A DNA stretch of 64,000 nt from positions 17,305,653-17,369,652 of the forward strand of contig NC_134028.1 of assembly GCF_964204645.1 (NCBI RefSeq). Direction: 5' to 3'. Position 1 is the first letter of the stretch; each line of letters starts with the position of its first letter. Shown in pieces: positions 10,850 through 58,631 of this stretch. The stretch comes from Tubulanus polymorphus (taxonomy: Eukaryota > Animalia > Nemertea). Under the pieces are notes generated by a model. The model did not search any database and was not told the origin of the DNA. It saw only the letters and a program-made list of their open reading frames with translations. The translations under genes and the position numbers were made by a program.

Positions 10850-10908
<59 letters not shown>

Positions 10909-14339: not shown

Positions 14340-14664
14340 CATATAATCAGAAAATTTCACACCGAGATTTCCAATCAGTTGATGAATTGATATGATTCAG
14401 TAACAAATTCTGAAACGTGAAATCTATCAGGTGAATACGTTCTGAATTTATATTTATTTGCTTTCCGTCCTTCATATTATAAATGTATTACTAATTTATC
14501 ACCATATTTATTTGTAATTATATTAATATTTGTAATTAAATATTTCTTATATTATGTCAATAAACTTTTTAGATTTATAATCTACAGATTGAACATTTGT
14601 AGTATCTTTAATTCTATCTAGAAATGATTCTTTTATTTTCGCTTTGTGTTTGTTTACTCTCCAT
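14340..14664 (-). pseudogene. Decayed copy of the small KYG/LP-family PLV gene
   Basis: MESKQTQSENKESFLDRIKDTTNVQSVDYK nearly identical to the start of 21714-22067. Confidence 0.75.
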
Positions 14665-19522: not shown

Positions 19523-19538
19523 TTATATAATTAAAAAA

Positions 19539-20974: not shown

Positions 20975-20990
20975 TTATATATCAAAAGAA

Positions 20991-21696
20991 TTACTCTTTG
21001 CATCTTATAACTAATTCATAAATTACAGGACAGTTATTCAAATCAATTAAATATCCATTGTGATTTCTTACTTCTGACTTAAAATTATTGAATTGTGAAA
21101 TGCAATGCTTAAAATCACATTCTGTTAGATTATAATTTATTTGCATTCCAAATTCTTTAACATTCTTCAATGGTAAAATATTTAATTTACCAGAATTACA
21201 AGTTGTATCTTTAGTTGCTTCGAATGTTTTTGTAGCATCAATTAAATTGCAATAAATATAAAAATGCGTGTAAATGCGTGTAAGGTATTAAGTTTGTTGT
21301 AGCATCAATATTTGTAAAAGATCTATCTGGTGGAATTCCTAACATTTTTGCTATAAGTTTTTTTTACCATAGATTTATGTTTTTCACTATTAGTCAACCT
21401 TATCTTAATTTTATCAGAACTCTCACTCTTTGAAAATCTTATACTAAACCTGGAATTACTACCTAACTCGTACCAGGCTTTTCTATTAATTTCTTGCGAT
21501 AATGTATTAAAAAGGCTCTATGTTCAATAGTTTTATTCGATATATTGTAAAATGAGTTACATAAACTTATATTTACTTATTTTAAATCCACACACTTTTT
21601 AAATTCCCTATCTAATTGTATTTGTGAATTATGAGATTTGTAATTTGTATGTCTTCTTGAATCAACAAATATTCTATATTCTTTTAATTCTACCAT
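20991..21696 (-). pseudogene. Minor capsid (penton) protein, decayed
   Basis: MVELKEYRIFVDSR... start identical to the copy-3 gene. Confidence 0.7.
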
Positions 21697-21713
21697 TTAT
21701 TTTACATATTTTC

Positions 21714-22067
21714 TTATTCGAAATCTATTTCATGGTGCCCTTTTTCATTCTTACCTTTATATATGAAATAGAAATCACCTGAACATAATTCTTCTAAATC
21801 TTCACTTGATAACCTATGAAATCTATCTGGTAAATATGTTCTGAATTTATATGTATTTCCTTTTAATCCTTCATATTCTAAGTGAATAACTAATTTATCT
21901 CCATATTTGTTAGTAACTGTATCAATATTTGTAATTAGATATTTCTTATGAATTGTTAATTCTGTTAACTTTTTGAATTTATAATCTACAGATTTTACAT
22001 TTGTTATATCTTTAATTCTATCTAGAAATAATTTGTTGTTCTCACTGTGTGTTTGTTTACTCTCCAT
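21714..22067 (-). CDS. Small PLV protein (KYG...YLPxRF family; possible OB-fold ssDNA-binding protein)
   Basis: Intact 117 aa directly after pPolB; five homologous copies in the window; fold is inference. Confidence 0.65.
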   Translation of the reverse strand: MESKQTHSENNKLFLDRIKDITNVKSVDYKFKKLTELTIHKKYLITNIDTVTNKYGDKLVIHLEYEGLKGNTYKFRTYLPDRFHRLSSEDLEELCSGDFYFIYKGKNEKGHHEIDFE

Positions 22068-22096
22068 TTATAATACATATTTTTATTAAAATTTGA

Positions 22097-25000
22097 TTAA
22101 CACGTTAGAATTCTTTTCATTATCTCGTTCTCTTTTGTTTCTTCTCTTTTAAATTTTAAGTATTCATCTAAATTACAACCATAAGCAACTGTATGAATTC
22201 CATCATCTAAAATATATCTTTTATCATCGAATGGGTTCAAACTAACTTTTTCTATTTCTTCAATAAACACTTCGTGATCTTCTGATCTTAAACATTTCAT
22301 CTTATGTTTTCTAACATAATTGCTTCTTCATTGAATATACAATTGATGTAATCTTTGAAATGAATGTTTTTTTCTACTACACTTTTAATTATTCCTTTTA
22401 ACTTTTTGGCTTCATGTTCTTTAGTTCTATAACTATACATCTTAGATCGAATACCTATAAATTCTATCATTTCTTCAACTCCTAATTCATCTTTGAATTT
22501 ACCAGGACTTTTTTTTATTATCATTGTTAAACAATTCATGATCTTTTGGATAATTACTAAAGTCGGAGTGATGTTTTAATGTTTGTAAATCATCTGTTAT
22601 GTTATTAGTTTTTATCTTTAATATGAAACTATCTGTATCAAAGTATAGAATTTCTGTATGCTTTTTCCCAAAATGAGGTTGTAATACGTTATAGTAAAAT
22701 TCATACATTAATAATTTTGATATTTCGTAAACTGAAGCTCCAACATAAATTGGTTTATTAAACTTCATAGAAGTTCTTTTCATTTTAACTGCAGCTAAAT
22801 TTCCATCAAATATTCTGTTACCAATAAGTCTAGGATATGTTTGTAAATGTCTAATTCTTTTAAACCATTACTAACTAACTCAATATCATTTCTATTTCTT
22901 ATGAATTCACAAGTCTTACCATAGAATGCATTATTCATTAACTTGAAAAAATCTTTCTCGAAATCAGTTTTAGCTTTAGTTCTCTGTTTGGTGTTAAAAT
23001 TTATATATTTTTCTAACCATTTAGATTATTATTTTCATACTGTAAAACTTCAGTTATTTCAAATACTCCATAACGTTGTGGTTCCATCATTGCCCAACCA
23101 TATAGATTATTTGCGTCTATATATAATAACTTATAGCCAGGATTATCATTCACATTGAAATATTTATCACTTAATACACCTGAAACTCTCCCTCTTATAG
23201 ATTTTTCAAATAACAATAATTGATCTATATTTGTTAACAAATCCATTTTTATATCTGTAAATGTTAAACCACAATTTCAAGTTAAACCTGGACTCGAATA
23301 ACAATGACATCGATCAATATTAAAATATTTTAGATTTACATCTCTAAATCTTTCAAATATATCAGTTAATAATAATACATCTGATTTTAAATATAAATCT
23401 ACTAATTGTCCATGATTTTTTTATTTTGAAATGATTCCAAATATTCAATGTTCTATTATATACTTCATCTTTAACATATTCATTTTTTAATTCATCATAA
23501 AATTGTTCTTTTAATAATTCAGTTATATTAAAATCATTATGATTTTTATAAAATGTATATGGAATTGCTCCTTTATATCTCATTAATTGAAAATCATTAT
23601 TATTTGGATAGTGTTCCTTTAATATCTTTAATTCATCATCAACTAATGATTTTGATAAATTATCTAATGAACTACTTAAAAATCTATATGAATCAATAAA
23701 TCTTAGGAATCCAAATTGGAAAGATATATAATTTTCAGATGTTTTAGCTAACATTTTAAATTTATAAATTGGTATTTTATCTTTTGATCTATTTGAATTT
23801 AATCTTGCTATTTCATTATTGATTTCTTCTATTTTATGACATAGCTGTCTGATAAATAAATGAGCATCATACCCTGAAAAATTATAAAATATTACTGGAG
23901 CAAAATTTATTTTCTTAGCTTGTAAGTTACAATTCTCATGCGCCGCGCCTCGAAACTTTCCATTCAAATGATCATGGTCTCTAACGTTTTAATCTTTAAA
24001 ATTAAATAGTTTTTCACAATAAAAACATTTATCTGAAAACTCAAATTCTTCTTTATCTTCTTCTGTCATTATAATTTCTTTATTTTCATTTAACTTTTCA
24101 TTAAACTTTATTTCATATTCAATTAATAAGTCACAAAAATGATTGATGACATTTTCATTTCTATAATGATAATATTCACTTTCAATTAGTTCTGGGTAGT
24201 CTGATTTTATATATAATCCAAAAGACGCAGCTGATTGATGAATCTTTTTAATAGTATTTGTTTTTGGTGGTTCTTCTGAGAAATCATTTTCAGAATTTAA
24301 TTTCTTTCTTTTATAATATATTTCTTTTCTATCTTGATCAGTTAATTCTTTATTTAATGATTCAAAATACTTTATTCTTGTAATTATATTTCTTGAATTC
24401 TAATATTTTATCTTTTTCATTTGGTAAAATCATTTTACAATAATCATGATTTTCACATAATTGTTTATGATTTAATAATGCACTTTCATTACTAAATTTA
24501 GTTATACATTTTCTACATAGATATATTTTATGGTGATCATTTTCTGTTCTAAAAAATACATCTATTTGTTTTATCCACATATAATGATTTTCATAATATA
24601 ATATATCTATAACCCCATTTGAATCATAATCTTTTGATAGATATAAAGGTTCTAATGTATAATGTTCAATTTTATTGCCCTTTGTATTTGATAATTTAAT
24701 TAAATCGAATACATTTATTTTTAGATTATTATCACTTTCTATTTTTGGAATATTTCTAATTCTAACAGGATAATTGTCTCTCTTATAATTATTTTCAAAT
24801 TGTTTATTATTTGTTAATCTAAAACTATGTGTAATATCTTCTGTTGGGTGTAAGCAACTAATTATTGTCCATAAAAAACATTTATTATCTTCATTTTGTA
24901 CATTTATGATAGCATTAGTTTTCAATGGTAATTTGATATAACTTGATCCATTAATATTATCATCTTTATAATATGATAAATTATTTTCATCAATTTGTTT

Positions 25001-25800
25001 TGATTTAGTTAACTTATATTTTGTATTGTACACATGTAAAGTCATAAATATTATTTCATCGAATATTAAACCAGATCCTTCAAAATATTTATCTTCTATT
25101 TTACTTTTTATTTCATTATAAAATTTATCTAACCTATCATCTATTTGCTGTTTCGAAATGATATGTTGTGAATGATAATTTATATTATATATTTGTTTAT
25201 CTTCAGATTCTAAAAATCTAACTTAAGCGGATATACTAATTTTAGGATATTCTACGTCTGTAATTATTTTTATAATATTTTTCATATTTTCTAAATGTTT
25301 TTTATTTTCTTCTAATGTTTTACCTTCATGAAATTTAAACTCGATTGCAGCGGGACCAATATCAATTTTAAATGCATCAGTTATTTCAATATCTTTTTTA
25401 TTATCTAATGAATTAATATAATTTCTAACATTTTCCATATATGATTTCTTATTATTTAGAATATCTTTTATTCTTTTAATTGTCTTCGGTTTATTATTAT
25501 CATTATCAAAATAATCTTCACCTAAAATATCATTATTCATATATATTCTAATATGACTTTTAGATTTTAAATGTTCTTTAAAATATCTTTTGTTACTGAA
25601 TGATTGATTACACGTATCACATTTATATATTTCTTATTCATTCTTTAATTCTTCTAATTTAGTTTCTAATATATCATCTTTACATTATAATCTTAATTTA
25701 TTTTCTAAGTGTGTTTTAGTTTTATTATGTCTTGCTTTTTGAGATTTATCTATATTGATTTTACATGTTGGACAGTAGTACTTCTTAGTAGTGCTTCCAT
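22097..25800 (-). pseudogene. polB: Protein-primed family B DNA polymerase, intein-free allele
   Basis: NEDNKCFLW, DHDHLNGKFRGAAH (EndoVII-like), FYNFSGYDAH, FIDSYRFL, YIDANNLYGWAM, KLMNNAFYGK, LYFDTDSF, GKFKDE, RSKMYSY. Confidence 0.93.
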
Positions 25801-25879
25801 TTTAATATCAAATTTTTTATCAAAATTGATTTTAGAAGTTATTCATTTATATATTATTCATATATATGAAATTATTAGG

Positions 25880-26024
25880 AGTAATAGGGAATATGGGGGT
25901 TCAGGTTAAAGGTTGAAGGGGTGAGTGAGTAAAAAATAAAAAATAAATTTTAGCGTACGAGAATTTATTTTTTATGAGCACGACCCTTCGACCTTTGGTA
26001 TGAACCCTCATATTCCCTATTACT
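25880..26024. repeat. Imperfect 145-bp terminal palindrome of TIR sequence
   Basis: agtaatagggaatatgggggttcaggttaaaggttgaaggg / cccttcgacctttggtatgaaccctcatattccctattact. Confidence 0.9.
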
Positions 26025-34326: not shown

Positions 34327-34417
34327 AGTAATTGGGAAAGTAGGCTTTCATACCAGAGGTCGAGCGGTCGAGACACCACTCACCACCACAAGTAATTTTT
34401 TTTTCCTAATAAATGGG
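34327..34417 (+). repeat. Left TIR (includes the TAAATG start of the first gene)
   Basis: agtaattgggaaagtaggctttcataccagaggtcgagcggtcgagacaccact...cctaataaatggg; reverse complement of 51515-51604 with one substitution and one T-run indel. Confidence 0.95.
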
Positions 34418-34738
34418 AGATAGAAAAGCATTCTTAGCAACAATAAATAACAGAATTAAACCAGCAAAAAAAAATTTGAAATAAAAAAGTTAGTTGATGT
34501 TACAAAAGAAATTGAACATAAAATATTGAAATTAGAAAAGATAAAAACTAAATATGGAGAGAAAGTATCAGCGAATTTAAGCTACTGTAATGTTAGTACA
34601 TCGCGAGAATTTAAAGTATTTTTACCTGATAAATGGGTTTCATTGAGTACAGAGGAATTAAAAGATTTAGAAGGATTTAAAATAATCTACCATGGGAAAA
34701 ATGAAGACGGTCATCATGATTTAGAAATTGTTGATTAA
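34413..34738 (+). pseudogene. Small KYG/LP-family PLV gene (one frameshift in an A run)
   Basis: MGDRKAFLATIN.../KIKTKYGEKV...KVFLPDKW...IIYHGKNEDGHH. Confidence 0.7.
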
Positions 34739-35008
34739 ATAAAAAATAAAAATAATGAATATCTAGAATCCAAAATGACCTTAGTCGTTTTACAAAAAAA
34801 ACAATCATACAGTCAAACATCTGTTACATGTTATTATAAGAGAGTGCTTCATTTGAATATTGATCGATCAAACAGGTGTTGCAATTCAACGTTGTTGTTA
34901 TAGCAGTTATATGATAAGCACGCAGTACATACAACACACACAGGACAGGAGGATATATTACCTCTCGTGATTAAAAGGAATATTTCAATGTTTTTACGGT
35001 AAGTTTTA

Positions 35009-35323
35009 GCAAAACCACCCGACTTGACTTACAGAGTTTTTAGGGGATAAGCATCCCGTTATTGAGAGGCGCCACGAGATACCTATCCCCAAGCATTTCT
35101 ACTTACACCCCTGTGACCCACACCTCGCCAATTCTCCTTCAATGGTTGACAGGAAACACATTATATTAAAGGCGCCTAATGCATTTCCTATCAACCCCTT
35201 ACCCCCGAAAGGAGGATCGAAAGTCGAACTTGAAGGAGAACCACGGAGGGTGGACAAAGGTGCATTTTCGAAATGCCCCTGCAAGCCAAGCCCGGCGGAA
35301 CTCCAGTGGTTGAATGAATTGCC
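35009..35323 (-). ncRNA. Putative structured RNA of unknown class
   Basis: Nested long stems whose mismatches are A-C on + and G-U on -; two hairpins with GGCGCC-containing loops. Confidence 0.55.
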
Positions 35324-35754
35324 TTATATACTTAGCTAAAAGTAAATGTTGCTGGTGCTAAAAAAATATGTGAAATTTGAAATTATAAATTATTCCGAAT
35401 GAAAAGAATATAAGAATGAAAACTGATGAATGAATTATGGATTTTTAACTTAATTATGATATAATTTTTAATCAAATTAGTAATCAATTACCATGTTAAT
35501 TGATTAACAAATTCAAATTCAAATTCAAATATTCATTTTAGCATCACACCCAGTGCTGCCATCTTTCAATTTAAACAAAAAACTAATAATAAGAAACGAC
35601 TGTAATACAATATTCAAGTAAAAACAAAATAAATTAATAAAAATAATGAATATCTATAATCCGAAATGACTTATCTGGACAATTTAATTGCTCCGCATAG
35701 ATAGACAAAAGTAGTGAGATATTCAATTATTTTTTTTGCTTTTTTTCTAAAATA

Positions 35755-36123
35755 TTAATCCATTTTTTTTATTGTCAATTTTGGAATTTCAGAAGTATTT
35801 TCATTTTTGATAGCAGTTGTTTCAGAATTATAAATATCATGAATTTTATTTGATTTCTTATACCAATTACACCCAATCAAAATGAATACAATTACAAATC
35901 CAACTGTAAAATATAGACATTTATCAAATATTCTATCATTAGAAGGAGTAGAAATAACAATATTTTCACTATTTTTATTAACATTTTTATTACTTATTTT
36001 TTCTTTTACAGCTTTTTTATATTCTTTTGATTTAATTCCTAATTGCCGAGACCATTCAATTTGTTTCTGTGATCTCGGTTTTTTCTTCACAGTTAATTCC
36101 TTCACTTCTTCCACCTCGCTCAT
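35755..36123 (-). CDS. Basic single-TM viral protein
   Basis: KKKPRSQKQIEWSRQLG N-terminus; CLYFTVGFVIVFILIG TM; TAATAAATG start. Confidence 0.7.
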   Translation of the reverse strand: MSEVEEVKELTVKKKPRSQKQIEWSRQLGIKSKEYKKAVKEKISNKNVNKNSENIVISTPSNDRIFDKCLYFTVGFVIVFILIGCNWYKKSNKIHDIYNSETTAIKNENTSEIPKLTIKKMD

Positions 36124-36659
36124 TTATTATAGAAATATTTTTACTTTCAATATTTGAAAATGTTATAACCCCAGTTGATAATAATGTCATAAATCCGCCT
36201 AATTGAAATGATAAATATCCAATCCATTTATTTAATTCAGTCATAACTAAATAGTCATTTTTTAAATCGGAATATAATCTATTTTCATCTTCAATTGGTA
36301 GTATATAATTACATAATTTACTATAACCTTTTACTACATTTTCTGATATCGCGTCATTAATTCTAGCTGTTCTCGCGGCTTCATAAATCTTAAATAATCT
36401 AATAATTTCATCTGATTTCATTGTATCTAATTCATAATAAGTTAAATTTTTACCGACAAAATTTTTACATTTTCCAGATGCTATTAATATTTCTAATTGA
36501 TGTTTACAATAAAGATAATATTCATAATTATTATTTGTTGTAACATTATTAAAAGCACCATCATCTGGAATTAATGTTTTCTGTTATTCCTAAATCATCT
36601 AAAGTTTTTTCAATTGGAACATCACCATTTTTAGATTTTATTTTCTTTTCACCTCCCAT
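36056..36659 (-). pseudogene. Conserved PLV hypothetical protein (frameshifted)
   Basis: Paralog of 3398-3976. Confidence 0.75.
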
Positions 36660-36690
36660 TTATATAACAAAAAAATTAATTGTGTTGTTG

Positions 36691-36951
36691 CAACTAGAAT
36701 TCAACTAGAATGTAACTAGAATTCAACTAGATTAACAAGCTAGTTGAAATATTGTTGTTTTTATTTATTTCTTGTTAAATCTAGTTGATTTTTGTTCCAA
36801 CTACTAATAACTAGAATTCAACTGGAATGTAACTAGAATTAAACTAGATTAACAAGCTAGTTAAAATATTGTTAAATCTAGTTGACTTTTGTTCCAACTA
36901 CTAATAATTAGAATGTAACTAAAAATATACTATATTAACAAGCTAGTTGAA
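36691..36951. repeat. Intergenic AACTAG/CTAGTT repeat block
   Basis: caactagaattcaactagaatgtaactagaatt...aacaagctagtt present about three times. Confidence 0.85.
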
Positions 36952-36952
36952 T

Positions 36953-37541
36953 TTAAATAAATTCATATTTAAATGGGTGTTGTAATCTAAATAGTAATTT
37001 TGATCTTTTAATATTTTTCAACTTATCCATATATTCATTGTGTAAATCATGTGGAATAATATCATTTTCCTCAAATGCATTTTTCATCGATTTTCTATCT
37101 TTATTGTAGAATAAAACTAGAAATCTAAGGTTTTCTCTAAAGTCTTTAACAATTGAATTATAATTTTTATTTAAAACCCAAGTTGTTATCCCAAAATGTC
37201 TGCCAGAAAAAGCTAAATAACATAACTCACTCTCTCTAATTTTTGAATCATGTAAATTTGCACAATCATCTATAATGAATAATGTATTTGATCCTTTATA
37301 AATTATTATCTAAATTTTCTTTTACTGTTTTAGGATCTAATATAATAAATTTATTATTTCTAGTAATATTTCTATCATAAGTTTGATTAAATTCATATGT
37401 TGGACAAAATAATACTATATTATCAAAATAGTTTTTATAAACAGTTTCTAATAAGTTTAATATAGAATAAGTTTTTCCACAATTTGTTACACCAGAAATT
37501 AACATATTATGAGGTTCAAATATAAATAATTCCTTATTCAT
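36953..37541 (-). pseudogene. A32/FtsK-type genome packaging ATPase (one in-frame stop)
   Basis: Walker A ISGVTNCGKT, Walker B LFIIDDC, SGRH motif. Confidence 0.9.
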
Positions 37542-38671
37542 TTATACATTTTTTAATTTTACTTGACAATATCCATTCATTGAATTTATCTGGCCATCCA
37601 ACCCATTTTACTAAAGAATATTTTTTTCTTTTAATAGTTTTTGTTTTAAATACTTTTTCAATTTTATATTCTTGTTCTAGATTTTCAGTAGTTAAACTCA
37701 ATTCTTCTTCGTAAAAGTAGCCATCAACTTCTTCACCATCTAAATCTTCTAATTTATAGACATATGGTTTTGTTGTTATTACCTTTTTTATTTTATATAT
37801 TTCCCTAGTAAAATTTCGATCGTATCCTTTGTCAAATATCTTTTTATACTTAGAAATTCTAACATTTTGACCAACTTTAAATTTAGGTTCACCAGAATCA
37901 TCTACAAGAAATGCTCCATATAAATTATTCCAAACAATTTCAGCATTTTCAGGTTTTCTAGCATCAATAGGTTTCATTCCAATAGAAGAATGATAAGAAT
38001 TATTATATCCTTCTATCAATTTTGGTAAAACATCAATCCATTTAAAAGTATTATTTGCTGTAAAATATTTCCACATTCTTGTTCTTAATGTTCTATTAAA
38101 TCGTTCAACAACTGCCGCTTTTTTATCCGATTTTGTTGAAAAATATTTAATATTATGATTATCTAAGAGTTCATGAACAAGTGAATTATCAAACTCCTTT
38201 CCATCATCAAATTGTTTTTTTTTCTGGTTTTAGTTTATCATCCGAAAGAAATTTTCTTAAAACATTTGATGTTTGTTCAGCATCTTTTCTATAAAGTGGG
38301 AAACTCCATACATAACGACTAAAAATATCAATTATATTCAATATCCACCAATAATCATCATTATGTTTCTTAACATTTTTCATATCAATTAAATCTCCTT
38401 GCCACTGTTGATCTACATAACTTACCATAGTTTTACTAGTTTTATATTTTCTAACAATTTTTTTATGTGTTGTATATGTTGGTTGTTCTAACATAAATTC
38501 ATTTATATCTTTATATTTAACTAAATTTTGTGGGATTATCTTATCTAATTTATCTTGTTTTACTTGACGCCATATATTTTTGGTAGAAGAATAAGTAACC
38601 CAACTCTCAGGGTTGTAATATAAATTTCTTAAATATTGTTCTTTAGTATTAGGAGTTTTTTTACCGCCCAC
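37534..38671 (-). pseudogene. int: Retroviral-type (rve) integrase with C-terminal chromodomain
   Basis: QWQGDLIDM, IDIFSRY, QFDDGKEF, VVERFNRTLR, YN..YHSSIGMKP, YKIEKV...LVKWVGWPDKFNEWI. Confidence 0.93.
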
Positions 38672-38701
38672 TTATATATCGTTAATTTTAACTTTATATT
38701 T

Positions 38702-39965
38702 CTAATATTGAATACTATCTAATTGTGAATTCACAATATTTAATTGTGCGTCAGATATAATATAAATGTGCATTTTGAAATTGTTGCCTCTTTTCTTCGC
38801 CATGAATAATTGTATTCCATCTTTAGTATTTTGCAGTTTTTTCCCAGAACCATGTAATGAATTTTCCTCTGTTGTTCTAAAATCTAACCATAATGCATAT
38901 TTATTACCGGTATAATAATCAATTTGATTAATATTACAATTTTCAAATGATTTTACTTTTTCATTCATAAAATGTTTTCTAATTTCTGGCCACTGATCTA
39001 TCATTCTCATTCCTTGACAAAATATTATATTTGCTATTCCTTCGATAGTTATTTCTACTTTTGTTATTTCAGGATTATAATAATTATCAACATTTATTGC
39101 GCCATTAGTATATGTTGCAATGGTAAAAATTTAATATACCTTTAAATATATTAATATACCTTTAATAGATCTTCTTGGGAAGTTAATATTCTCATTAATA
39201 ATTTCATCATTTGCATTAAATAGTTACAGTTTTAAATTTATCAATATAATCATATAATAATGAAAATCCTTGATTGTATTTAGTTTGAATTATACTTGAA
39301 ATATTTTCATCAGTTACTGTATCATATTCTAAACATATATTCGATAATTTATAACTCATATCTTTATTAACGCTAGGTATTACAATTTCATTAACAGGAG
39401 CAAATGTTATTTCGAATATAACGTCTTCTTGAATTGCGTATTTATATAAAGGCGCATTATTATTTATCAATTCAAAGTCTAATGGAATTTTATATTTGCT
39501 TCCATAAATCGTTTTTATCAAATTATCTACAGCATTAGTTACTACTGCATTATTGGCTTCAGATCTTAATTTATTATGGTTTTCCGATTGAATACCCTGA
39601 AATATCATATTATTTCTATTTTCTTTAGTTAACCATAAATCTTTATAATGCATAAATAGATTATAATCATCTAATGAGAAAACTGTTTCTCAACCAATCT
39701 TTATAGTTAATTTTTTAATCAAATATCTCCCAACATTATCGACAACATAATTATTATCATGACCGGTTACTTTTATATCGGCTGATAAATAAATACTATT
39801 TGGAACATAAAAAGTATTTTGTGTTAATCTAGGAATTCTAACATATAAAGTTTCATCGGGATTAATATTTGAAGGATTATGAGTAATTATATGATGTGAT
39901 CTTTCTGCTTTAATAGCATTAGATATTCTAGAAATCTTAGAAGGACTTATATAACTCCCACTCAT
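38702..39965 (-). pseudogene. Major capsid protein (double jelly-roll), frameshifted
   Basis: ~420 codons; NPSNINPDETLYVRIP, IPLDF, LSNICLEYD, PRRSIKGI, ALWLDFRT...LHGSG; size and position typical of Polinton MCP. Confidence 0.75.
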
Positions 39966-39989
39966 TTATTTAACAAAAAAATTAATGAT

Positions 39990-41435
39990 TTATTTTTTAT
40001 TATTTTTTCTTGATATCTTTTTGATATCATATTCAAAAATAATAGCACTTACAACTGTAATTAAAAATAAAATAATATGTTCAGCAGCAAAGTTAAGAAT
40101 ATTCCCAGCAGATTTCAATATAAAACCAACAATTGATGCAATAATTCCTGGTAAAGCTGCAGCAGATTTTTTAGATAGTTCCCATAAATATTTTGCTAAT
40201 TTCTTTAAACCATCTTTAACTTTATCTTGTATAGAATTATTATCATTCGGGGGTTTATCCGGTTTATTTGGAGTAGGAGTAGATTTTAAAGCATTTGATA
40301 TTGCTAAACCAATTGTTGTAAATAACATAGTTACAGCTGTTAGAATTGAAAGAATTGTTATTCCTTCTAATTTAAATAATGACTTTATTCTATCTTTCAA
40401 TGATATTTCAGAATTTGGTTTAATCAAAAAATCTTTAAAAATAACTTTTAATCTATTTATATTATAATCATATGATTTTAACAATAATTTAATTTCTTCT
40501 TTTTGTAATTCTATGTTATATTCTAAATCATCTTTTTCTTTTTCTAAACGTAATTCTTTTTGTCTATATTCTATTTCATCAATTACTTGATGATCTAAAT
40601 CAGACTTTAATTGTTCTATTTCTTTATTTTTATCAGTTAATTCTTTTTCTAAAGTTCTAATTTTAAAATCTCTTATACTTTTATCATGCGCAATTTTATC
40701 AGATGCAAGCCTTATACTTTTAATTTCTCTAATTGCTTCAACAGAAAATATATTATTTAAATCTTCTTGATCTGTTGCATCAATTAATCCATTCGGTAAA
40801 AGTTTTTCAATTGGAACTTTATTTGATTTAAGTTTACTAGTTTTGGAAGTTATATTCTGTTCAGAAGTTGTTTCTGTTTCTGATTTCTTTTTGATTATTT
40901 CAAATAATTCATTAATTCTTTGTTTAAATACGTCTATATTATCATCTCTTTCTTTTTGTGTAACATCAGTTATTTCATTACTATTACTTATTCTCTTAAT
41001 TCTAAATGTTTCTAAATTTTTCAAAGTTGATTCCGCTAATATTGTTTTTAGTTTTGTCCTTTGATTAGTGATATCAATATAATAATCAATTTTCAAACGA
41101 TAATAACATTTACCATTATCTAAAAATTTTAATTTATGTGCTAATGGTCCAACGTCTTTATCATTTATGTTAAATTCAGAATTTTCAATTATATGTTTTA
41201 ATTTAGGTATTTTGTTTAAATTATCTAAATCTTGTTTTACTAAATCTGGGTCTAAATTTTCAGGATTTAATTGTGATTCTGCATTTTTGATATAATCAGG
41301 CATATTTAAATTATTATTATATCCTGGCTCATTACCATCATTAGAACTTGTTTCACTAAAATCAGGTTGTTGTTCTTCAGTTATGCCGGGTTCATCATAC
41401 GTATCCATTCCAATATCTTCTCCTTCTACATCCAT
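39990..41435 (-). CDS. 481-aa coiled-coil protein with C-terminal hydrophobic/amphipathic helices
   Basis: Intact ORF; EGITILSILTAVTML and KSAAALPGIIASIVGFIL segments. Confidence 0.8.
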   Translation of the reverse strand: MDVEGEDIGMDTYDEPGITEEQQPDFSETSSNDGNEPGYNNNLNMPDYIKNAESQLNPENLDPDLVKQDLDNLNKIPKLKHIIENSEFNINDKDVGPLAHKLKFLDNGKCYYRLKIDYYIDITNQRTKLKTILAESTLKNLETFRIKRISNSNEITDVTQKERDDNIDVFKQRINELFEIIKKKSETETTSEQNITSKTSKLKSNKVPIEKLLPNGLIDATDQEDLNNIFSVEAIREIKSIRLASDKIAHDKSIRDFKIRTLEKELTDKNKEIEQLKSDLDHQVIDEIEYRQKELRLEKEKDDLEYNIELQKEEIKLLLKSYDYNINRLKVIFKDFLIKPNSEISLKDRIKSLFKLEGITILSILTAVTMLFTTIGLAISNALKSTPTPNKPDKPPNDNNSIQDKVKDGLKKLAKYLWELSKKSAAALPGIIASIVGFILKSAGNILNFAAEHIILFLITVVSAIIFEYDIKKISRKNNKK

Positions 41436-41451
41436 TTATATAATAAAAAAA

Positions 41452-42835
41452 TTAAAATTTAAAATATAATATTCCTCCTATAACAATTCCTATACAAGTT
41501 TATTTAGTATTTTCATGGGATTTATTATCATCATTTAGTTTAATTATATCATGTTGAATATTATCAGTTTTAATATTTTCTGCAGTATTGTAATCTTTTA
41601 TTTTAGAATCATTATTTAATTTAATATTCTTAGTTTTAGTTCCTGTTGATTGAATGTGTTTTTTATTTTTTTCACCTTCCATTAATTTTGGAGCAGTAAT
41701 AATCTTTTTATTTATATCATTCAATCCAAATGAATTATTTTTTGTTGCAGTTTTAATTAGATTATTATAACCAATTATATTTCCCATCTTTAATACTAAA
41801 TCATTAGAAATAATAAAAAGATTAGGGCCTATACAATGATTTAATCTAATATGTGATTTATCTAAATAATTTTAATATCTTACAATGTTTTCTGGAATCG
41901 ATCTATTTTTATCATTATGAATAGAATCTTCAAATAATACTTTGAATTGTTTCTGTGTATCAAATGATGTATTTAAATTTCCAATTATTGGGGATCTTGT
42001 TTCAACTTGCGCACCTAAAATACATATCAAATAAGTTCTAATAGATTGATTTATTCTTTGTATACCTGATTTTGTAAAACCTTCATTATTTTCTAAAATG
42101 AAATAAACCCAACCATTATTGTTTTCTTGTTTTAAATTATCATAAAATTTCGGTAATTTATTGAAATTAATTGTTTCTAAATCCTTGGTTTCTATTTTAC
42201 CATAACCTAATTTATTACTATAGATATTATAAAAACTATTAGATGGTATGGGAAGTGCACAATATTCTGCAATCTTTTTAGGGCAAGGAAGTGATCTTAT
42301 TGTTCCAATTTTTGTTCTAAAATCAGAATTATTTATATCTATATTAAATTCATTACAAATTTTGTAAAACTTTGATAAATTAATATTATTATCTAATTCT
42401 TTAAAATGCCTAGATCCTGGTAAAGCGCACTCTAATTCATTTAATATTATTCTGATTTGAAAGTATGGATGAAATCTAAATAAACTTTGAATTAATTTAT
42501 ATTTAGAATTATTCAAATGATCATTCCAACTAATTCCACAACCTGTTGTTGCACAAATAAACAGCAAAATTTAATTGGTTCTGCCAATACTTCATATTAG
42601 ATTTTAATAACCATTGTTTTTCATCTTTCAATTTTTTAAAATTAATTAAATATGCATGAAATATATTTTCCATCTTTGCATTAAAATTATTAGTTTCAGT
42701 AACATAAATTTCTAAATTAGTTAATGAATCTAAAACTTCATTTCTATATTGAATATCTTTATTAAAATCTATTGCTGGAATATTATAATTAATTGATTTA
42801 TTATATTGGAAAGCTTTTGGAAAACTATCTACCAT
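41452..42835 (-). pseudogene. Conserved PLV protein with C-terminal TM
   Basis: Three ORF pieces; paralog of 18293-19522. Confidence 0.8.
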
Positions 42836-42851
42836 TTATTTAATTAAAAAA

Positions 42852-43286
42852 TTAATAATTTATTAATTCTTTTAATAATTTATCTTGTTCTTCAACTGTT
42901 ATATGACCATTCAAACTTATTATATAATCTAGTGTATTCTTCAATTTATTAATTTCTTTTATATTAGTTTTAATTTTTTCTTTATTACTTTTTATATTTA
43001 ATTTTGAACTTATATCAGTTAAAACACTTGAACTTAATCCTAATACACCAATTGATATAGCTAAAGGTGTTAATGGACTGAATATTGCTAGAAATGTTAT
43101 TACAGAACTAATTGTAACCGAACCACTAATAATAAGATAATATATAATTTTACTTTTTAAATATTTTTTCTTTTTTATCTTTAAGTCACTTTCAAATTCT
43201 AATATTTGTTTTTCTACATATATTTTTAATTTATTTTTATTTATATCATGAGGAATAATATCAATACTATCAACTTTATCTTCCAT
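42852..43286 (-). CDS. Two-TM small protein
   Basis: Intact 144 aa; two hydrophobic segments; TAAATG start. Confidence 0.75.
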   Translation of the reverse strand: MEDKVDSIDIIPHDINKNKLKIYVEKQILEFESDLKIKKKKYLKSKIIYYLIISGSVTISSVITFLAIFSPLTPLAISIGVLGLSSSVLTDISSKLNIKSNKEKIKTNIKEINKLKNTLDYIISLNGHITVEEQDKLLKELINY

Positions 43287-43305
43287 TTATTTAGAAAAAA
43301 AATTA

Positions 43306-43728
43306 CTAATTAGTAAATGTATATGCTACAAATATAACAATAACTGTTCCACCTAAAATCCAAATTATTTCATATTTCTGTTGTTCTTTACTTGGGGTAT
43401 AATAATCTGATAATTGTGGTTTGTATAGATGTAATTTTTCTTTAATGGTTACTGCGTTATATAAACTCATTGCATCATCAACTGATTGAAAATCTCTATG
43501 TGAAATCTTCTGATCATATAATTCCTTGTTAATATAATCCATATAGTTTTGTCGTTTTTCTATGTATTCTTCTGCTGCCTTATCATATTTCTCTAATGCT
43601 AAATTATGTCTTCTTTGTTCTCCTAATGAACTATTTTTATCAATATGCTTAAATAAATAACCGCCACCAGTAAATGCTAAAGCGTTAACAATTGCCGATC
43701 CTATAATAGTTATAATTGCAGAAGCCAT
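43306..43728 (-). CDS. Small protein, hydrophobic N- and C-termini
   Basis: MASAIITIIGSAIVNALAFTGG...; conserved in copy 2. Confidence 0.8.
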   Translation of the reverse strand: MASAIITIIGSAIVNALAFTGGGYLFKHIDKNSSLGEQRRHNLALEKYDKAAEEYIEKRQNYMDYINKELYDQKISHRDFQSVDDAMSLYNAVTIKEKLHLYKPQLSDYYTPSKEQQKYEIIWILGGTVIVIFVAYTFTN

Positions 43729-43752
43729 TTATTTAGTAAAATAATTACGCAT

Positions 43753-43974
43753 TTATATGGGAGGAATATATTTTTGTTTTTCCAAATAATCAATAGTGAA
43801 ATTAGATAAAGTAACTGCTAATGTTAATTTTAAAATATCATTTATATCAAATCTATCAACATTAACACTTCCCATTTTAAATACTTTTTTTAATACCATT
43901 GAATAACCAACAGTTCCAACTGATAGTAATGCTCCATTATATAATCCAGTTATTATCCACTTATTATCACTCAT
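43753..43974 (-). CDS. 73-aa hydrophobic protein
   Basis: Intact in both copies and nearly identical to 20413-20634. Confidence 0.8.
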   Translation of the reverse strand: MSDNKWIITGLYNGALLSVGTVGYSMVLKKVFKMGSVNVDRFDINDILKLTLAVTLSNFTIDYLEKQKYIPPI

Positions 43975-44334
43975 TTTTTAATCAAAAAAATTACTATCTT
44001 CAAAATATTTAGTTATCTTATTTATAATTATTTCAACATTTATTTCATTACTACTTTTATGATTATCATATATTTTGGTTAATATGTTTTTGATATCATC
44101 TATGATAAAACCTTCATCTAATTCATAAAATCTTAAAGATTATCTAATTAAATTAGTAATCTTTTCTACATTTAAAGTTTCTTTATCTATTGTTGTTTCA
44201 TACTCAAATGTTGTTTCATTAGAAAATGCAATATTTTTGATATGTGTAATTACATCATTAATGTTAAATTTCATTTCTTTCTCACGTTTAAAATCAAACC
44301 CAAAACATATACTCGGTCCAACAGTTATATTCAT
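43967..44334 (-). pseudogene. Hypothetical PLV protein
   Basis: MNITVGPSICFGFDFK; intact paralog at 20627-20974. Confidence 0.7.
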
Positions 44335-44350
44335 TTATATAGTGAAAAAA

Positions 44351-45106
44351 TTACTCTTTACATCTTATAACTAATTCATATATCACAGGAAAGTTATTCA
44401 AATCAATTAAATAACCATTATGATTTCTTATTTCTAATTCAAAATTATTGAAATGTGGAATACTAGGTTCAAAATCACATTCAGCTAAATTATAATTTAT
44501 TTGCGTTCCAAATTGTTTAACATTTTTTAATGGTAAAATATTTAATATACTAGAATTACAAATTGTATCTTTAGTTGCTTCAAATGTTTTTGTTGGGTCA
44601 ATTAAATTGCAATAAATATAAAAGTGTGTAAAAGGTATTAAGTTTGATCTACCTTCTGCGTATGCTGTAACAATTTGGGTTAATTCCTAACAGTTTACCT
44701 AGAGGTTTTCTTACTGTAAATTTAAATTGTTCGTCATTAGCTAACCTAATCTTTATTTTATTAGAACTATCACTTTTTAAAATTCTAATACTAAATCCGG
44801 AATCACTTCCTAATTTAGCTCGAGCTTTTCTATTAATTTCTTGTGCTAATGTATCTAAATTATATAATCCTGGTTTTAAATATATAAAAAACCATTTATT
44901 CCTTTTTTGTAAAAGATTGAAAAAATTAAATGTTCTAGACTTTTATCCGATATATTGTAAAATGAGTTACATAAACTTATATTTACTAATTTTAAATCAA
45001 CACAATTCTTAAATTCTCTATCTAATTGTATTAGTAAATTATGTGATTTATAATTTGTAAGTTTTCTAGAATCAACAAATATTCTGTATTCTTTTAATTC
45101 TACCAT
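44351..45106 (-). pseudogene. Minor capsid (penton, single jelly-roll) protein
   Basis: IFVDSR...LDREF...SLCNSFYNI...KPGLYNL...FYIYCNLI pattern typical of Polinton/virophage mCP. Confidence 0.7.
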
Positions 45107-45174
45107 TATTTATAACATAAAAAAATTACCGCTCATCACTAAAAATTAATTTTAATAAAATTTTTCCTTAATAA

Positions 45175-46523
45175 ATGGATGAGAAGATAGCATGTGAAAT
45201 TTGTGGTGAACTTCTAAGAAAAAGTAATATGGCTCGACATATGAAAATGTGAAAATATGAAAAAAACATGATGAAAATTATAAACCCCCTAAACTAAACT
45301 GTCCAAAATGTAATAAATTATTCTCAAGAAATTATGTTAAAAAACATTCAGAGAAGTGTAAAATTAATGGCGCAACGGCTAATGTTGATAGTAATGAAAG
45401 TAATAGTAATTCTGTTGAAGTTGAACCTGAAATTATTTGAAAAAGACCTTTCTTATTCTATGACAAGGATAATATAAAAGATCATTTCTGCGAGCCTTGT
45501 CGAATAAAATATAACGCTGAAAATATAGTATAGAAGATTGGGAGAATCATCAATTTCGTAAAGTACATATAGATAAAATTTCTAATAAATTTGAAACTGA
45601 ATTCAATGAAAGAAAAAATAGTTTATTAGAAAAAATAAAATATGAGAAAACGTTACCAGATAATAAAGAAACAGTTGAAAAGTTAGAAAAACAATATAAT
45701 ATATTAACAAGAAAAACATATTATTGTAAATATTGTAAATTGATTATTACAACAAGTAATTCAAATCGACATAATAGAACAACAAAACATAAAGAAAACG
45801 TAAGAAAATACCAGGAGCTTAATGAAGATCTATTACCAATAAATTATAAACGAAAATGTCCACAATGTAGTTATGCGACCTTAAGACAAGAAGGTACTGT
45901 TATTTTGTGTTGATTGTGGATGGCAAAAGAATTTATGGGGTGAAGAAAAAACTAGAAATTTTCTCATAGATCCAAAATTAAATTATCTAGATGAAATTTT
46001 TAAAATATTTTCTATAGAAGATCATACACCAGAATATATGCAATGGCTTGAAAAATGAAAATAATAGAAAATAAAAATGGTGAAATAACTAAAAAAGATA
46101 TTATAAAAACAATTATTCCGTCAACATTTAACACAAAACAAAAGAAAATGTATTTATATTTATTATTTAACGATTATTATGAAAAACCTAAATTAACAGA
46201 AGAAGATATGGAAAATATAAAAAAAAATATTTAAACAAATATTAATGTATCATTTGGAAAATAGAATAACAGATTCAATAAATTATGAATTCTTTTTAAA
46301 TAAGATTGTAAATTATTTAAACATAGATATTATAATTCCATTTGATGAATTAACAAACAAAAAGAAACAAAGAGAGCGAGATGAAATGTGGAATAATATA
46401 ACACGTTATTTAAATGAGAAAAATGAAATGGAAGAACCTAAACAAATTATACAAGAACAATTAAATGAAAATGAAGAAGCCAATAGTGATTTCGAGTATG
46501 ATGATATTGATTTTCTGTTTTAA
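45175..46523 (+). pseudogene. Multi-zinc-finger protein, decayed
   Basis: CEICGELLRKSNMARH, CPKCNKLF, YCKYCK...RHNRTTKH, CPQC. Confidence 0.65.
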
Positions 46524-49500
46524 TGGCCATAAGGTAATGTTTTTATACCATCATCTAAAATATGCCTTTTATCATCAAATTGATTCAAACTAGTTTTTTC
46601 AACTTCATTAATGTACATCTCGTGATCTTCTGATCTTAAACAATTCATTTTGTGTTTCATTACAATTGAGTTATATAAACACTTTATATAATCTTGGAAT
46701 TCTATATGTTTATCAACCACATGTTTTGTTATTCCTTTTAACTTTTTAGCTTCATAATCTTATGTTCTGTAACTATACATTCTACTTCTTATCCCAACAA
46801 ATTCAATCATTTCATCACCCCCTAATTCATCTTTAAACTTACCAGGAATCTTTTTATTATCATTGCTAAATAGTTCATGATCTTTGGGATAATTGCTAAA
46901 ATCAAAATGATGTTTTAATGTTTTTAAGTCTTTTGTTATGTCATTTGTCTTGATTTTTAGTATGTAGGCGTCCGTATTTTTGGCTATTAATGGAAATCCA
47001 CAGTTAAATGTACCATCTTCAGTTGATAAATCATAAACATAATCTGTTGGGTTATATATTTCAAATAAATCTTTAACTTCTTCAGTTAAATCTTTTTCTG
47101 TGTGGCTTAAATTAAAGCAATTTGGTTTAGATTTAATCAATCCAATATTCATATTGAAGCCTAATGAATTACATAATATATTTAACCCTGAAGTAGCAAC
47201 TTTTCCTTTCTGTGCAAAGGTTATCTTTTTATCCTTTGTAAATTTTTTAGCACCATCTGCTGCGTAGAATCCAATGAAGAACCATAATCTGGAACTATCT
47301 TTTCTTTAGTTGAAGTATTATTTTTAACTATTGCATGAATATAGAATTCATCATTATATTTTATAGCAAAATCTTTAGGATTGTTTACAAGTATTCTATA
47401 AACTGCTGTTGATTTCATATGATCCATGATTCTAAATGTTTTATGTGAATAAACTTCTTCACAGAATTTCTTAATTCTTTCTAATAATTTTAAGTCTTGA
47501 TTGCATAAATACTTACAATATTTATTACCCCAAACATAATTATACACACCTGCTGAACCATCTCCCATGAAAAATCCTTTGATAAAATATTCTTTTTCTT
47601 CTAATGTTTCGGGTTCTATGTTATAAGTATTATCAGTAATTTCATCAAATGACATATGATTCATTCTTTGGAAAAATCATTTATGTAATAATTCATCTAG
47701 AATTTTTATATCAGTTGGTTTTATTTCATCACCATTTCGTTTAATTAAACTATGATCTTCTGTAACATCTACAAACCCTAATTTAGTTCTAAATCTATAG
47801 ATTTTCTTATTTGTTTTATGCTTAATAATATTCTTTAATTTTTTCCACCCATTTCTTGTCCAAACATCCATTAATTCATTTATTTGTATTAATTCTTTTT
47901 CACCGTATGAAATATAACATTCATTTTGTTTTGGAATTATTTCTGATATTCTTCTTATCAATATTTTATCATTACATTTTAATAATATTGGGGTGTCAGC
48001 TGTTACAGAATCAAAATATAATATTTCAATATGCTTTTCCCCAAAAAGTGGTTGTAAAACATTATAATAAAAATCATACATTAATAATTTTGATACTTCT
48101 AAAACAGTTGAACCAATGAATATAGGTTTATTAAATTTCATTGACGTTCTTTTTAATTTAACTGCTGTTAAATAATCTTCAAATCTTTTATTTCCTAAAT
48201 GTCTAGGACTTGATTGTAAATGTCTTAATCTTTCAGAATTATTTACTAATTCAATATCATTTCCATTTCTAATATTTTCGCATGTTTTACCATAAAAACT
48301 ATTATTCATTAATTTGAAGAAATCTTTTTCAAAATCTGTTTTTGATATGGTTCTCAGTTGAGTATTGAAATCTATATATTTTTCTAACCACTTTGATTGA
48401 TTAAATTCAATATATCTATGTACTTTCTTTAATTTCATTCCTTGTTTTAGATAAAATTTTAACATTCTATAATGAACGATATAATTGTATTTATTATTTT
48501 GAGTAAGTATTAATTTTTCTGTAAAAACATGATCTTTCGGTTTTATTTTCTTCTGGTATTCACTTAAATAACTATCATCTACAGTTAAATGTTTTTGGCA
48601 ATAAGGTAAGTTTCTTGTTTTAAACTTTATATTTTCAGGATATTCTAAATCAACTACAAAGAAATAACCAATTGGTGCTTCATCTTCTAAACTCATAATT
48701 GCGCTTTCCCAATTAGTTTAATCATCATTTTCAACTTCTGTTAAGATAAAATTTTTATACGGTTGAGGTTGCATCATTGCCCAGCCATATAAATTATTGG
48801 CGTCAATATATAATAATTTATATTCATCATTTGCTTTAAAATATCTATCTCCCATAACACCACTAATTCCACCTCTAATTGATTTTTCAAATAATAAAAC
48901 CATATCTGGTTCCTTTAATAAATCTAATTCTACATTTGTATATTTTAAACCACATTGCCGGGGTAAACCAGAACTAGAGTAGCAATAACAAGGATCAACA
49001 TTAAAATGATTCAAATTAACTTCTCTAAATTTTTCAAATATGTCAGCCAATATCATAACATCTGATTTTAAATATAAATCAACTAATTCGCCATGATTTT
49101 TCATCTTAAAATGGTTCCAAATACCTAATGTTCTATTAAATACTTCGTCTTTCACATACTCCTCTTTTAATTGATCATAAAATTCTGTTACATTAAAATC
49201 ATTGTGTTTTTTATAAAATGAATAAGGAATTGCGCCTTTATATCTCAATAATTTAAAATCTTGTTCATTTGGATAATAATATCGAGTTATAACAAAATCA
49301 TTATCAACTAAACTTTTTGATAAATTATCTAATGAACTTGCTAGAAATCTATAAGAATCTAAAAATCTAATGCAACCAAATTGAAATGAAATATAATTTT
49401 CAGATGTTTTAGCTAATAGTTTAAAATCATATTTTCTTACATTTACACCATTCATAGCATTATATTCTTCTATTTCTTGCATAATTGTGCCCAATTTCCT

Positions 49501-51519
49501 TGATAATTGTTTTATAAATAGATGGGTATCATAGCCTGATAAATCATGAAATAATCTTGGAACGAAATTTACTTTTTTAGCTTGTAAATTACAATCTTCA
49601 TGAGCAGCTCCACGATATGTTGAATTTAAATGATCATGATCTCTAACTTTTTTATCAAATGAATAAAAACGTTTTTCACAATAACAACAATGAGTTGCAT
49701 AATTAAAATCAATTTCATCTTCTTTTTTCATAACTATTCTTTTATTTTTGTTTAATAATTTTGCAAAATCACTTTCTAATTCAATCATTTTATCACAAAA
49801 ATCATTAACTACATTTTCACCTCTAAAAGAAATATATTGACTTTCATATAACATAAGCAGCAGCTCTTTGATGAACTTTTTAAATTGTATTTATAATTGG
49901 TGGGTCTTGTGTTGTGTCTTCATTTAATTCATTTCCTTTATCCATTGATTTTAATAATTGCTTTTTGTTATATATTTCTTTTCTATCTTGATCAGTTAAT
50001 TCTTTATTCAACGATTCAAAATCCCCATAAATTACAAATGGAACAATGTTCTTATATGATTTTATGATTAGTAAATTTCAATTTATAATCTTTTTCTGTT
50101 GGCATTATCAATTTGCAAAAATCTTTATTATCACATAATTCTTTATGTTTTAATAATGTATTCTCAGTCATAAATTTAGATAAACATTTTCTACATAGAA
50201 AAATTTTATTATGGTGATCACTTTCTGTTCTAAAGAATAAATCAATTTGTTTTAACCACATATAATGTTCATTTTCATCTTTTTTGTAATATAACAAATC
50301 TATAGCATTTTAATCATCATAATATTCTGTTAAATATAAAGCTTCCAATGTATAATCTTTAATATTTTCACCCTTTGTCTTTGGTAATTGCATTAATTCA
50401 AATACATTTATTTTTAAATTATTAACTTTTTCTATTTTAGGAATCATTTTTATAGTTACTGGATATTGATCAATTTTATATAATGTTTCATATTTCCGGT
50501 AATTTGTTATTCTAAAACTATGCGTCATATCTTCTGTTGGGTGTAAACAACTAATAATTGACCATAGGAAACATTTATTATCTTCATTTTGAACATTTAT
50601 TACTGCTTTTGTTGTAAATGGTAATTTAATATAAGATGATGCTTTAATATCCTTTTCTGTTGTAAAGTTTGAATCATTTTTAAACATTTTATTACTTTTT
50701 GATGTTTTATTCCTTTTTGTATTGTAAACATTTAAATCTAAATATATAATTTCATTCAATGTTAAGCCAGAACCCTCAAAATATCTTTCTTCAATATGAC
50801 GTTTAAATTCATTAAATATTTTTTCTAACTTCTCTTTTATTTGTGATTTTGAAATTATTTCGTCAGAGTGTGTTTGAATATTATAATTCATTTTTTCTTC
50901 TGACTTTATAAATCTTACTTTCCCAGAGATACTAATTTTTGGATATTCAACATCTGTTATCAAATCTAGTATTTTTTCTATTATTTCATTAAATTTACTA
51001 TAATCTTCTATTGTTGTTCCTTTAAAAAATCTAAATATAATAGCTGCAGGACAAATTTTACTATGTAATGTTTCTAAAATTTCAATTGTATCTTTTATTT
51101 CTAGTGAATCAATATAATTTCTAACATTTTCCATGTAAGGTTTATTTGAAATTGATTTAGTTTTTGAAGTTGGTTTTTTTACTTGTTGAGGTTTATCATC
51201 AAAATAACCTTTTCCTAAAACATTATTACTCAAATTTTGGCGGTGTTTTTGTGATTCGAGATGTCTATTATAATTCCTTTTTACTATAAATTCATTACAA
51301 ACTTCACATTTTATTTCATCCACATTCATATTTTCTAATCTTTCTTTTCTTTCATTGGAATTTTCTGGAGTTTCAAAATCTATTACATTTTTTATATGAT
51401 TTGCAGTTTTTTCATGTCGTGATTTTTGGGATTTATCAATGTATTTTTTTACAATATTGACAATAATATTGATTTTTATTAACATTAGTGTTTTCTGGCT
51501 GGTGTTCATTCTCCCCCAT
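46520..51519 (-). pseudogene. polB: Protein-primed family B DNA polymerase containing an intein
   Basis: ZnF N-terminus, NEDNKCFLWS/HYMW, RDHDHLN..YRGAAH, FHDLSGYDTH, YIDANNLYGWAM, KLMNNSFYGK, YFD|intein|TDAY, GKFKDE, DDKR. Confidence 0.95.
46976..48009 (-). mobile_element. Intein with LAGLIDADG homing endonuclease in pPolB motif C
   Basis: Block A SVTADTPILL, block B VDVTEDHSL, EN motifs FIKGFFMGDGS and FFIGFYAADG, block F YVYDLSTEDGTF, block G LIAKN|T. Confidence 0.93.
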
Positions 51520-51608
51520 TTATTAGGAAAAAAAATTACTTGTGGTGATGAGTGGTGTCTCGACCGCTCGACCTCTGGTATGAAAGCCTACTTTCCCAAT
51601 TACTTACT
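51515..51608 (-). repeat. Right TIR (includes the pPolB start codon)
   Basis: Reverse complement of 34327-34417 plus an extra terminal TACT. Confidence 0.95.
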
Positions 51609-58330: not shown

Positions 58331-58631
58331 ACAAAGCGGATTGTTAATGCGGAACGATTGCGCTTCAACACTAAACTATATGCTGTGCCACGTATACCAC
58401 ACACACATTTCAGACCTGTCAATGCGATATATTCCCACACTTATCACAACTTCCTACAGAATGTCAACTTTTAAAAATGTCGATCACATCCACTTCGATC
58501 ACAGTTTCACAATCAAATTACACAGTTTTCGTACCTTTTCTTAGCATTAAAATGATGTTATAATCCGCTTTAATGGAGAGCCTACATTCGCGTGACTTTA
58601 TGCGGCGGCCATTGTGATATGCAATAGGTAT

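Follow-up and report, generated by a model that had tools for sequence, protein, structure and literature searches.

Animal Mavericks have been described by their proteins. Adintoviruses have virion genes in common with adenoviruses (PMC8502044). The VA RNAs of adenoviruses, structured transcripts of Pol III, inhibit PKR and serve as substrates of Dicer (PMC4378190). Polinton-like viruses carry RNAs of Rfam classes: tRNA, group I introns, snRNA and snoRNA (PMC12220804). ROOL, GOLLD and OLE serve as models for pairing between RNA molecules (PMC12286853, PMC12990946), and ROOL is abundant and non-essential (PMC12286853). In MMTV the PBS palindrome, the hexamer GGCGCC, has been put forward as a site of dimer contact (PMC4264320). 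Among the papers listed for Mavericks, none reports a structured RNA specific to these elements or one that is VA-like, and neither came up in term searches of PMC8502044 and PMC11296320. It must be noted that tables S11-S12 of PMC12220804 list Polinton-like virus RNAs and may bear on novelty.

Here we describe a predicted structured RNA from the window, the whole 64-kb stretch of DNA that was analysed, which is a cluster of Maverick elements. The structure lies on the minus strand, and it is real and selected. The predicted RNA is a new family of virus-borne structured RNA whose function we infer below.

The Maverick and the slot of the RNA

The element at 34327..51604 is a Maverick/Polinton. 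It is 17.3 kb long, within the 15-20 kb of such elements, and has a terminal inverted repeat, pPolB, an rve integrase and an A32 ATPase. We take the host to be probably an invertebrate animal; Atlas matches, under 0.9, gave weak leads to its group. The repeat is 94 nt at 96.8% identity (left copy 34327..34420, partner 51512-51604), and both element ends sit in microsatellite, where a 6-bp target site duplication was sought. The element is endogenous and its genes are in pieces through frameshifts. Its Pfam matches are Pox_A32, VLTF3-like, rve and chromo, the last two below the Pfam cut-offs. The polymerase piece has 3084 relatives at E<=1e-30, some with PF03175. PDB and PHROG searches with the element's viral proteins gave no match, and the pieces at 38702-39965 had none in Pfam, PHROG or the Atlas. 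We take these pieces as a candidate double jelly-roll capsid. VLTF3 is known in a Maverick subgroup (PMC11131425).

The window holds other features as well. Four further Maverick pieces (1-6000, 13095-14385, 18243-26024 and 58616-59068) are 71-90% identical to the main element. At 2200-2285 another Maverick copy has a long near-perfect inverted repeat with arms of ~26 bp, in a position similar to the slot of the RNA. By eye, an intein that includes a homing-endonuclease-like part seems to interrupt the polymerase motif C region (46760-48717); one relative (P0027) carries PF14528 and PF14890. A LINE (endonuclease and ORF1-like; 55848-58600, 58900-61300) cuts a Maverick piece beside a 31-nt satellite.

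The RNA sits 590 nt inward from the element's left terminal repeat, in a cassette of ~850 nt between two 44-nt direct repeats:

34737..34779, plus strand: first copy of the direct repeat that bounds the RNA cassette, 44 nt, 90.9% identical to 35627-35670
35627..35670, plus strand: second copy of the direct repeat that bounds the cassette, paired with 34737..34779
35755..36583, minus strand: two overlapping viral ORFs upstream of the RNA, family unassigned, conserved in related Mavericks

Judging by sequence, the RNA is an accessory part of the element, because six related Mavericks and the other Maverick copies in the window are without it. The six are metagenome loci with the neighbouring gene (57-74% protein identity), and they have no GGCGCC, GC island or model match; little can be drawn from the two that are shorter than 1.6 kb and the one that stops within the gene. 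The slot is occupied by another gene in L001 and by the integrase in L004. By eye the gene in L001 (8870-9507) is deoxynucleoside-kinase-like, with a P-loop. None of 23 distant polymerase loci has such an RNA. Since our covariance model was built from a single sequence, it could miss distant homologues; in these 23 loci it gave two matches of the same score (26 bits) and length, and the one examined proved to be a tandem array of palindromes. L110, a polymerase-bearing viral contig, has a tandem array of ~21-nt palindromic units at 10880-11130. Motif scans gave 91 loci (32 + 30 viral, 29 prokaryotic). In the 62 viral loci BLAST matched the seed alone, both hexamers are open in loops in none of the 32 twin-motif viral loci, and the model gave one weak match (14 bits) across all 91. 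Phage BLAST with the RNA gave no match, nor did the neighbour protein in viral contigs.

The earlier note on this DNA did not recognise the family, and the search of Rfam agrees. It found no family for the RNA: its matches were three microRNA ones on a microsatellite and six by chance at E 6-7.5. SRP, 7SK, RNase P and MRP have no covariance-model match at E up to 10. The VA RNA family has no Rfam match in sequence or structure and significant internal A and B boxes are absent; the terminal stem followed by a U run, a feature of VA RNA, is present. A retrozyme or group I intron is rejected, with no catalytic core or Rfam match. The note's suggestion of a ribozyme finds no support either: the hammerhead core CUGANGA is absent from both strands and no Rfam ribozyme matches.

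The fold and its covariation

Folded as RNA, the minus strand of 35009-35323 comes to -153.3 kcal/mol (z -13.66), and 0 of 100 shuffles do as well. The plus strand reaches only -96 kcal/mol (z -4.12). The earlier note had claimed a strand-specific structure from five stems, and folding both strands bears this out. All five stems are present: 15 bp at 35021-35035/35278-35292 (11 Watson-Crick pairs and 4 A-C), 7 bp at 35013-35019/35305-35311 (6 and 1), the 17-bp stem of hairpin 35043-35090 (14 and 3), the 20-bp stem of hairpin 35144-35196 (17 and 3), and 11 bp at 35132-35142/35230-35240, which is Watson-Crick throughout. Their non-Watson-Crick positions are A-C on the plus strand, and hence G-U on the minus strand, in 11 of 11 cases, with 0 G-T on plus.

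The stretch 35011-35304 alone folds at -152.8 kcal/mol (z -12.2). The minus fold has 96 Watson-Crick and 19 G-U pairs (115 in total). A closing stem and P1 lead to a three-way junction with hairpin B and a 40-bp arm, and beyond the arm is a top junction that carries two small hairpins and hairpin A. The longest run of Watson-Crick pairs in a helix is 11 bp. The main helices have mean pair probabilities of 0.89-1.00, compared with 0.40 for the outermost GCAA/UUGC pairing. GGCGCC occurs three times in the window and two of these are in this RNA. As the note had observed, the loops of both long hairpins hold one each, and both hexamers are unpaired (P unpaired 0.91-1.0). The parts of the RNA, all on the minus strand, are:

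35345..35357, minus strand: YACC-N-AACATT motif by pattern, a possible but weak PSE-like element
35323..35330, minus strand: TATA box TATATAAG by sequence, its first T 31 nt before 35299
35011..35299, minus strand: predicted RNA gene of ~290 nt, with a predicted start and its end at T4; fold z -12.2, covariation
35298-35294/35019-35015, minus strand: closing stem, 5 bp, pair probability 0.98
35292-35277/35036-35021, minus strand: P1, 16 bp, pair probability 0.99
35093..35276, minus strand: long arm from the fold, 40 bp in five helices (7+11+4+4+14)
35269-35265/35103-35100, minus strand: purine-rich 5x4 internal loop of the long arm, from the fold
35202..35227, minus strand: two small hairpins at the top junction, from the fold
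35144..35196, minus strand: hairpin A, 20 bp, 13-nt loop, GGCGCC at 35171-35176; 3 compensatory doubles and 1 G-U exchange
35043..35090, minus strand: hairpin B, 17 bp, 14-nt loop, GGCGCC at 35068-35073; 5 Watson-Crick/G-U exchanges
35011..35014, minus strand: T4 run, likely Pol III terminator, directly after the closing stem
34987..35001, minus strand: second YACC-N-AACATT motif by pattern, just past T4; 9/12 to the human PSE, not significant

The 5x4 internal loop may resemble the AGUA/GAA motif of loop E.

Copies were studied in public raw DNA reads. Run X5 is possibly the window's own sample, and X1 is from a different sample and study. The X5 depth is 509-810 on the RNA and 348-488 on the upstream ORF, so the RNA is present in many copies, about as many as the element. 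There are two subfamilies that are ~18% apart and have the same viral flanks. At diagnostic sites ~29-42% of the X5 reads belong to subfamily B, which one X1 contig also represents, with 30 differences in 169 nt. The promoter side is common to both subfamilies, since from 35300 on the reads of B follow the window sequence again. The best-supported loose read ends are uniform (agreement 0.74-0.99) and stay in viral flank, and one X1 contig leaves the RNA at 35104 into unrelated DNA. As far as the reads show, the RNA is confined to the viral element, a point the earlier note had proposed to check; free copies may exist in the host genome. Neither the best-supported read ends nor Rfam gave a host SINE, LINE or Rfam family dispersed independently of the virus. 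In X3 the summed contig depth on 34794-35678 is 5-10 times lower than on both flanks; this may reflect elements without the cassette, and summed depth is no copy number.

Covariation was counted between the window copy and B over the 35 pairs of hairpins A and B that have both sides in view, which makes it a test of two lineages only. Nine of these pairs hold 12 changes in B, as 3 compensatory doubles and 6 Watson-Crick/G-U exchanges, and no pair is broken. When the same 12 changes are dealt at random, no pair breaks in 5 of 100,000 trials (P 5e-5), and at least 3 doubles arise in 1.3% of trials (P 0.013). Two of the single changes are tolerated on the minus strand only, because the new G-U there is a mismatch on plus. 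Positions 35041 and 35092 change together and lengthen hairpin B. Five of five further variants at paired sites are compatible, assuming an unchanged partner. Between 35006 and 35204 no indel reaches 9%, whereas 34440-36200 has 56 indel rows at or above 5%. The homologs thus covary, and this supports the selection on a minus-strand structure that the note had read from the G-U pairs.

Other differences between the subfamilies must be considered too. Four of the six single exchanges are G-U in the window copy and Watson-Crick in B, which may be drift in the window copy. The end pair of P2, at the junction, is changed on one side in B (35093). In loose-end rows read by eye, P1 has one mismatch in B, the outer stem is remodelled, and the second small hairpin of the top junction is absent (rows at 35194). 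Eleven changes at 35112-35132 were left out of the count because their partners lie outside 35006-35204; by eye, the new G/C run there has a complementary run opposite. Both hexamers are unchanged in B, an invariance that is weak alone (P 0.096). The loops have one change in 27 bases (P 0.035), and through it they resemble each other more. In the host, CpG is not depleted (o/e ~1.0), so the kept CG in the hexamers adds no support. Hairpins A and B are alike in their stems too (P 0.014), and the twin hairpins probably arose by duplication of one hairpin. The 2e-4 chance of a shared palindrome therefore overstates the case.

Transcription and possible roles

The promoters of the element's genes are a T-run followed by WAWATAAATG, with 8 minus-strand matches. 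At least eight viral gene starts in 36675-45125 have a T-run and TAAATG, and the element has a VLTF3-like gene. Such starts resemble poxvirus late promoters. The earlier note saw a site like these just upstream of the RNA. The site stands, as TATATAAG at 35330-35323. Its likeness to the gene promoters is reduced, since it has no ATG and the T-run before it is broken by 7 extra letters in most reads (364/641). To us it looks nearer to a Pol III TATA box than to the element's mRNA promoter.

A Pol III type 3 gene has a PSE and a TATA ~25-30 nt upstream (PMC5493778). Such genes also have a distal element. A TATA 31 nt upstream of 35299, a closing stem and an immediate T4 follow this layout, and they suggest a Pol III RNA of ~290 nt (35299-35011). 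Position 35299 is a purine on the minus strand in 461/478 reads and extends the closing stem. The RNA has no internal T4 run; this is weak, as the same holds for 17% of shuffles and 20/340 element windows. Within the window YACC-N-AACATT is found only at 35345..35357 and 35001, the two sites from which the pattern was drawn. Neither is above background as a PSE against the human consensus, which may not be the host's. A and B boxes in the RNA are not above background (best 7/9 and 6/7 to the consensus), and the B-box-like G at 35229 is changed in all reads.

The motif at 34987..35001 may be the head of a second small-RNA unit, partly deleted in the window copy. The stretch downstream of it has a fold z of +0.65. 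At 34942-34962 many reads have an extra GC-rich segment that is absent from the window copy (loose ends: 135 and 271 reads). This segment and the motif at 35001 may together be the second unit.

We argue, tentatively, that the best explanation is an accessory Pol III RNA of ~290 nt, probably from a stand-alone gene, that is clamped by its own loops and serves as a VA-like decoy. The structure very probably acts as RNA and not as single-stranded DNA. Host Pol III would transcribe it from 35299 to T4; initiation ~31 nt after the TATA and a stop at T4 seem somewhat likely. Hairpin A would then fold back to meet hairpin B, and the loops would kiss. We consider it likely, on the model, that the two GGCGCC loops pair. 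Hairpin A could reach B because the 40-bp arm and loops are about as long as 20 + 6 + 17 bp (43 bp). The kiss would hold the RNA together as a compact bundle whose helices are short and interrupted by G-U. Such a bundle would occupy dsRNA sensors or Dicer and so help the active phase of the element. That it would tie them up without triggering them is an analogy with the VA RNAs (PMC4378190) that we find conceivable but somewhat doubtful. The grounds for the reading as a whole are the accessory slot, the terminal stem and U run, the short helices, the matched lengths and the absence of indels in 35006-35204. Junction rules would stack hairpin A on the arm with the loops pointing apart, which favours pairing between molecules over an internal kiss.

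One can imagine a scenario where the RNA assembles itself, its palindromic loops pairing between molecules to give dimers, rings or chains that scaffold the capsid, the motor or a replication site. Palindromes are needed for pairing of identical molecules and not for an internal kiss. Each loop-loop duplex would be worth -14.1 kcal/mol in any combination, linkers of 1 nt and 0 nt favour a straight rod, and the element's A32-type ATPase is 1.6 kb from the RNA. Palindromic loops mark the intermolecular bridges of OLE and GOLLD (PMC12286853). A two-copy cofold (-318.9 vs -305.6) was not used, as it cannot represent kissing. However, a duplicated hairpin explains the twin palindromes without selection for them, and the relatives and window copies without the RNA mean that it cannot be essential for packaging. 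The same relatives weaken an essential packaging role of the kind that phi29 pRNA has, an RNA the earlier note had named for comparison. By this analogy self-assembly is possible but unlikely. It is less probable still that transcription begins near 35323 at a late-type promoter of the element, giving an RNA whose GGCAA pairs with its 3' end as the earlier note drew it. TATATAA resembles the WAWATAAATG gene starts and the VLTF3-like gene would fit, but the missing ATG, the interrupted T-run, the 0.40 probability of the GCAA pairing and a T4 exactly after the inner closing stem all argue the other way.

Perhaps the structure works as displaced single-stranded DNA, a signal for replication, packaging or integration made symmetric by selection or by template-switch repair. 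The minus strand folds better as DNA too (-64.9 vs -49.7 for plus), the position is near the element terminus, and pPolB replicates by strand displacement. Yet the multi-way junctions and the 19 G-U among 115 pairs look like RNA, Watson-Crick pairs rather than wobbles confined to one strand would be expected from template switching, a TATA and T4 frame the structure, and relatives do without it. We regard this as quite improbable. The same can be said of a captured host RNA gene or SINE that is a passenger in the element, for which one can cite a GC of 0.50 inside an element of 0.23, the direct repeats around the cassette and the higher X5 depth on the RNA than on the neighbouring ORF. There is no Rfam match for such a gene, the best-supported loose ends keep viral flank and not mixed host DNA, and the structure went on covarying from one viral subfamily to the other. 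With two long hairpins, a likely Pol III unit such as this could also be cut to microRNA-like guides, as in the Pol III pre-miRNAs of BLV and foamy virus (PMC4378190). We find a small-RNA precursor very improbable, since the stems are 17-20 bp, their letters change while the loops stay, and no match longer than 11 nt is found elsewhere in the window.

Comparison with known RNAs

The RNA is a reason to screen the intergenic GC islands of Mavericks for further unrecorded RNAs. It is also short and easily made, so it suits tests of natural self-assembly via twin palindromic loops.

SRP (7SL) and 7SK RNAs are like it in being long rods of ~300 nt made by Pol III, as is predicted for the Maverick RNA. 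The Alu domain of SRP has kissing loops. The Maverick RNA differs in having no GNRA-capped S domain on the minus strand, a single GAUC and no Rfam match. The RNAs of Polinton-like viruses were found with Rfam models, whereas no such model matches the Maverick RNA, which lies outside genes. It shares a GC-rich self-complementary hexamer with the retroviral dimer initiation palindromes (HIV-1 DIS, MMTV PBS), but it has two such loops per molecule and is an intergenic unit of a dsDNA element, not the leader of a genomic RNA.

phi29 pRNA, ROOL, GOLLD and OLE are structured RNAs with loop-loop contacts and are virus-borne as here, where the contacts are predicted. The loops of phi29 pRNA are complementary and not palindromic, and pRNA is essential. 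Compared with ROOL and GOLLD the Maverick RNA is smaller and its host is eukaryotic. If it did assemble, an animal virus of the Polinton lineage would encode an RNA-only building block, a rod with sticky loops that forms rings, chains or cages. It would stand beside pRNA, ROOL and GOLLD as their eukaryotic counterpart, and it would mean that the VA RNA idea arose independently in relatives of adenoviruses; we doubt it.

Adenovirus VA RNAI and RNAII, with the EBERs and BocaSR, are likewise small, highly paired RNAs of DNA viruses with a terminal stem and U run. Pol III transcription is a further likeness to the VA RNAs, likely for the Maverick RNA from its sequence. It is longer (~290 nt vs ~160 nt), and it differs in its upstream TATA, the lack of significant internal A and B boxes and the twin palindromic loops. 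If it is a true RNA gene kept by covariation, these Maverick families were under selection as active viruses, and Mavericks carry RNA tools just as adenoviruses and herpesviruses do.
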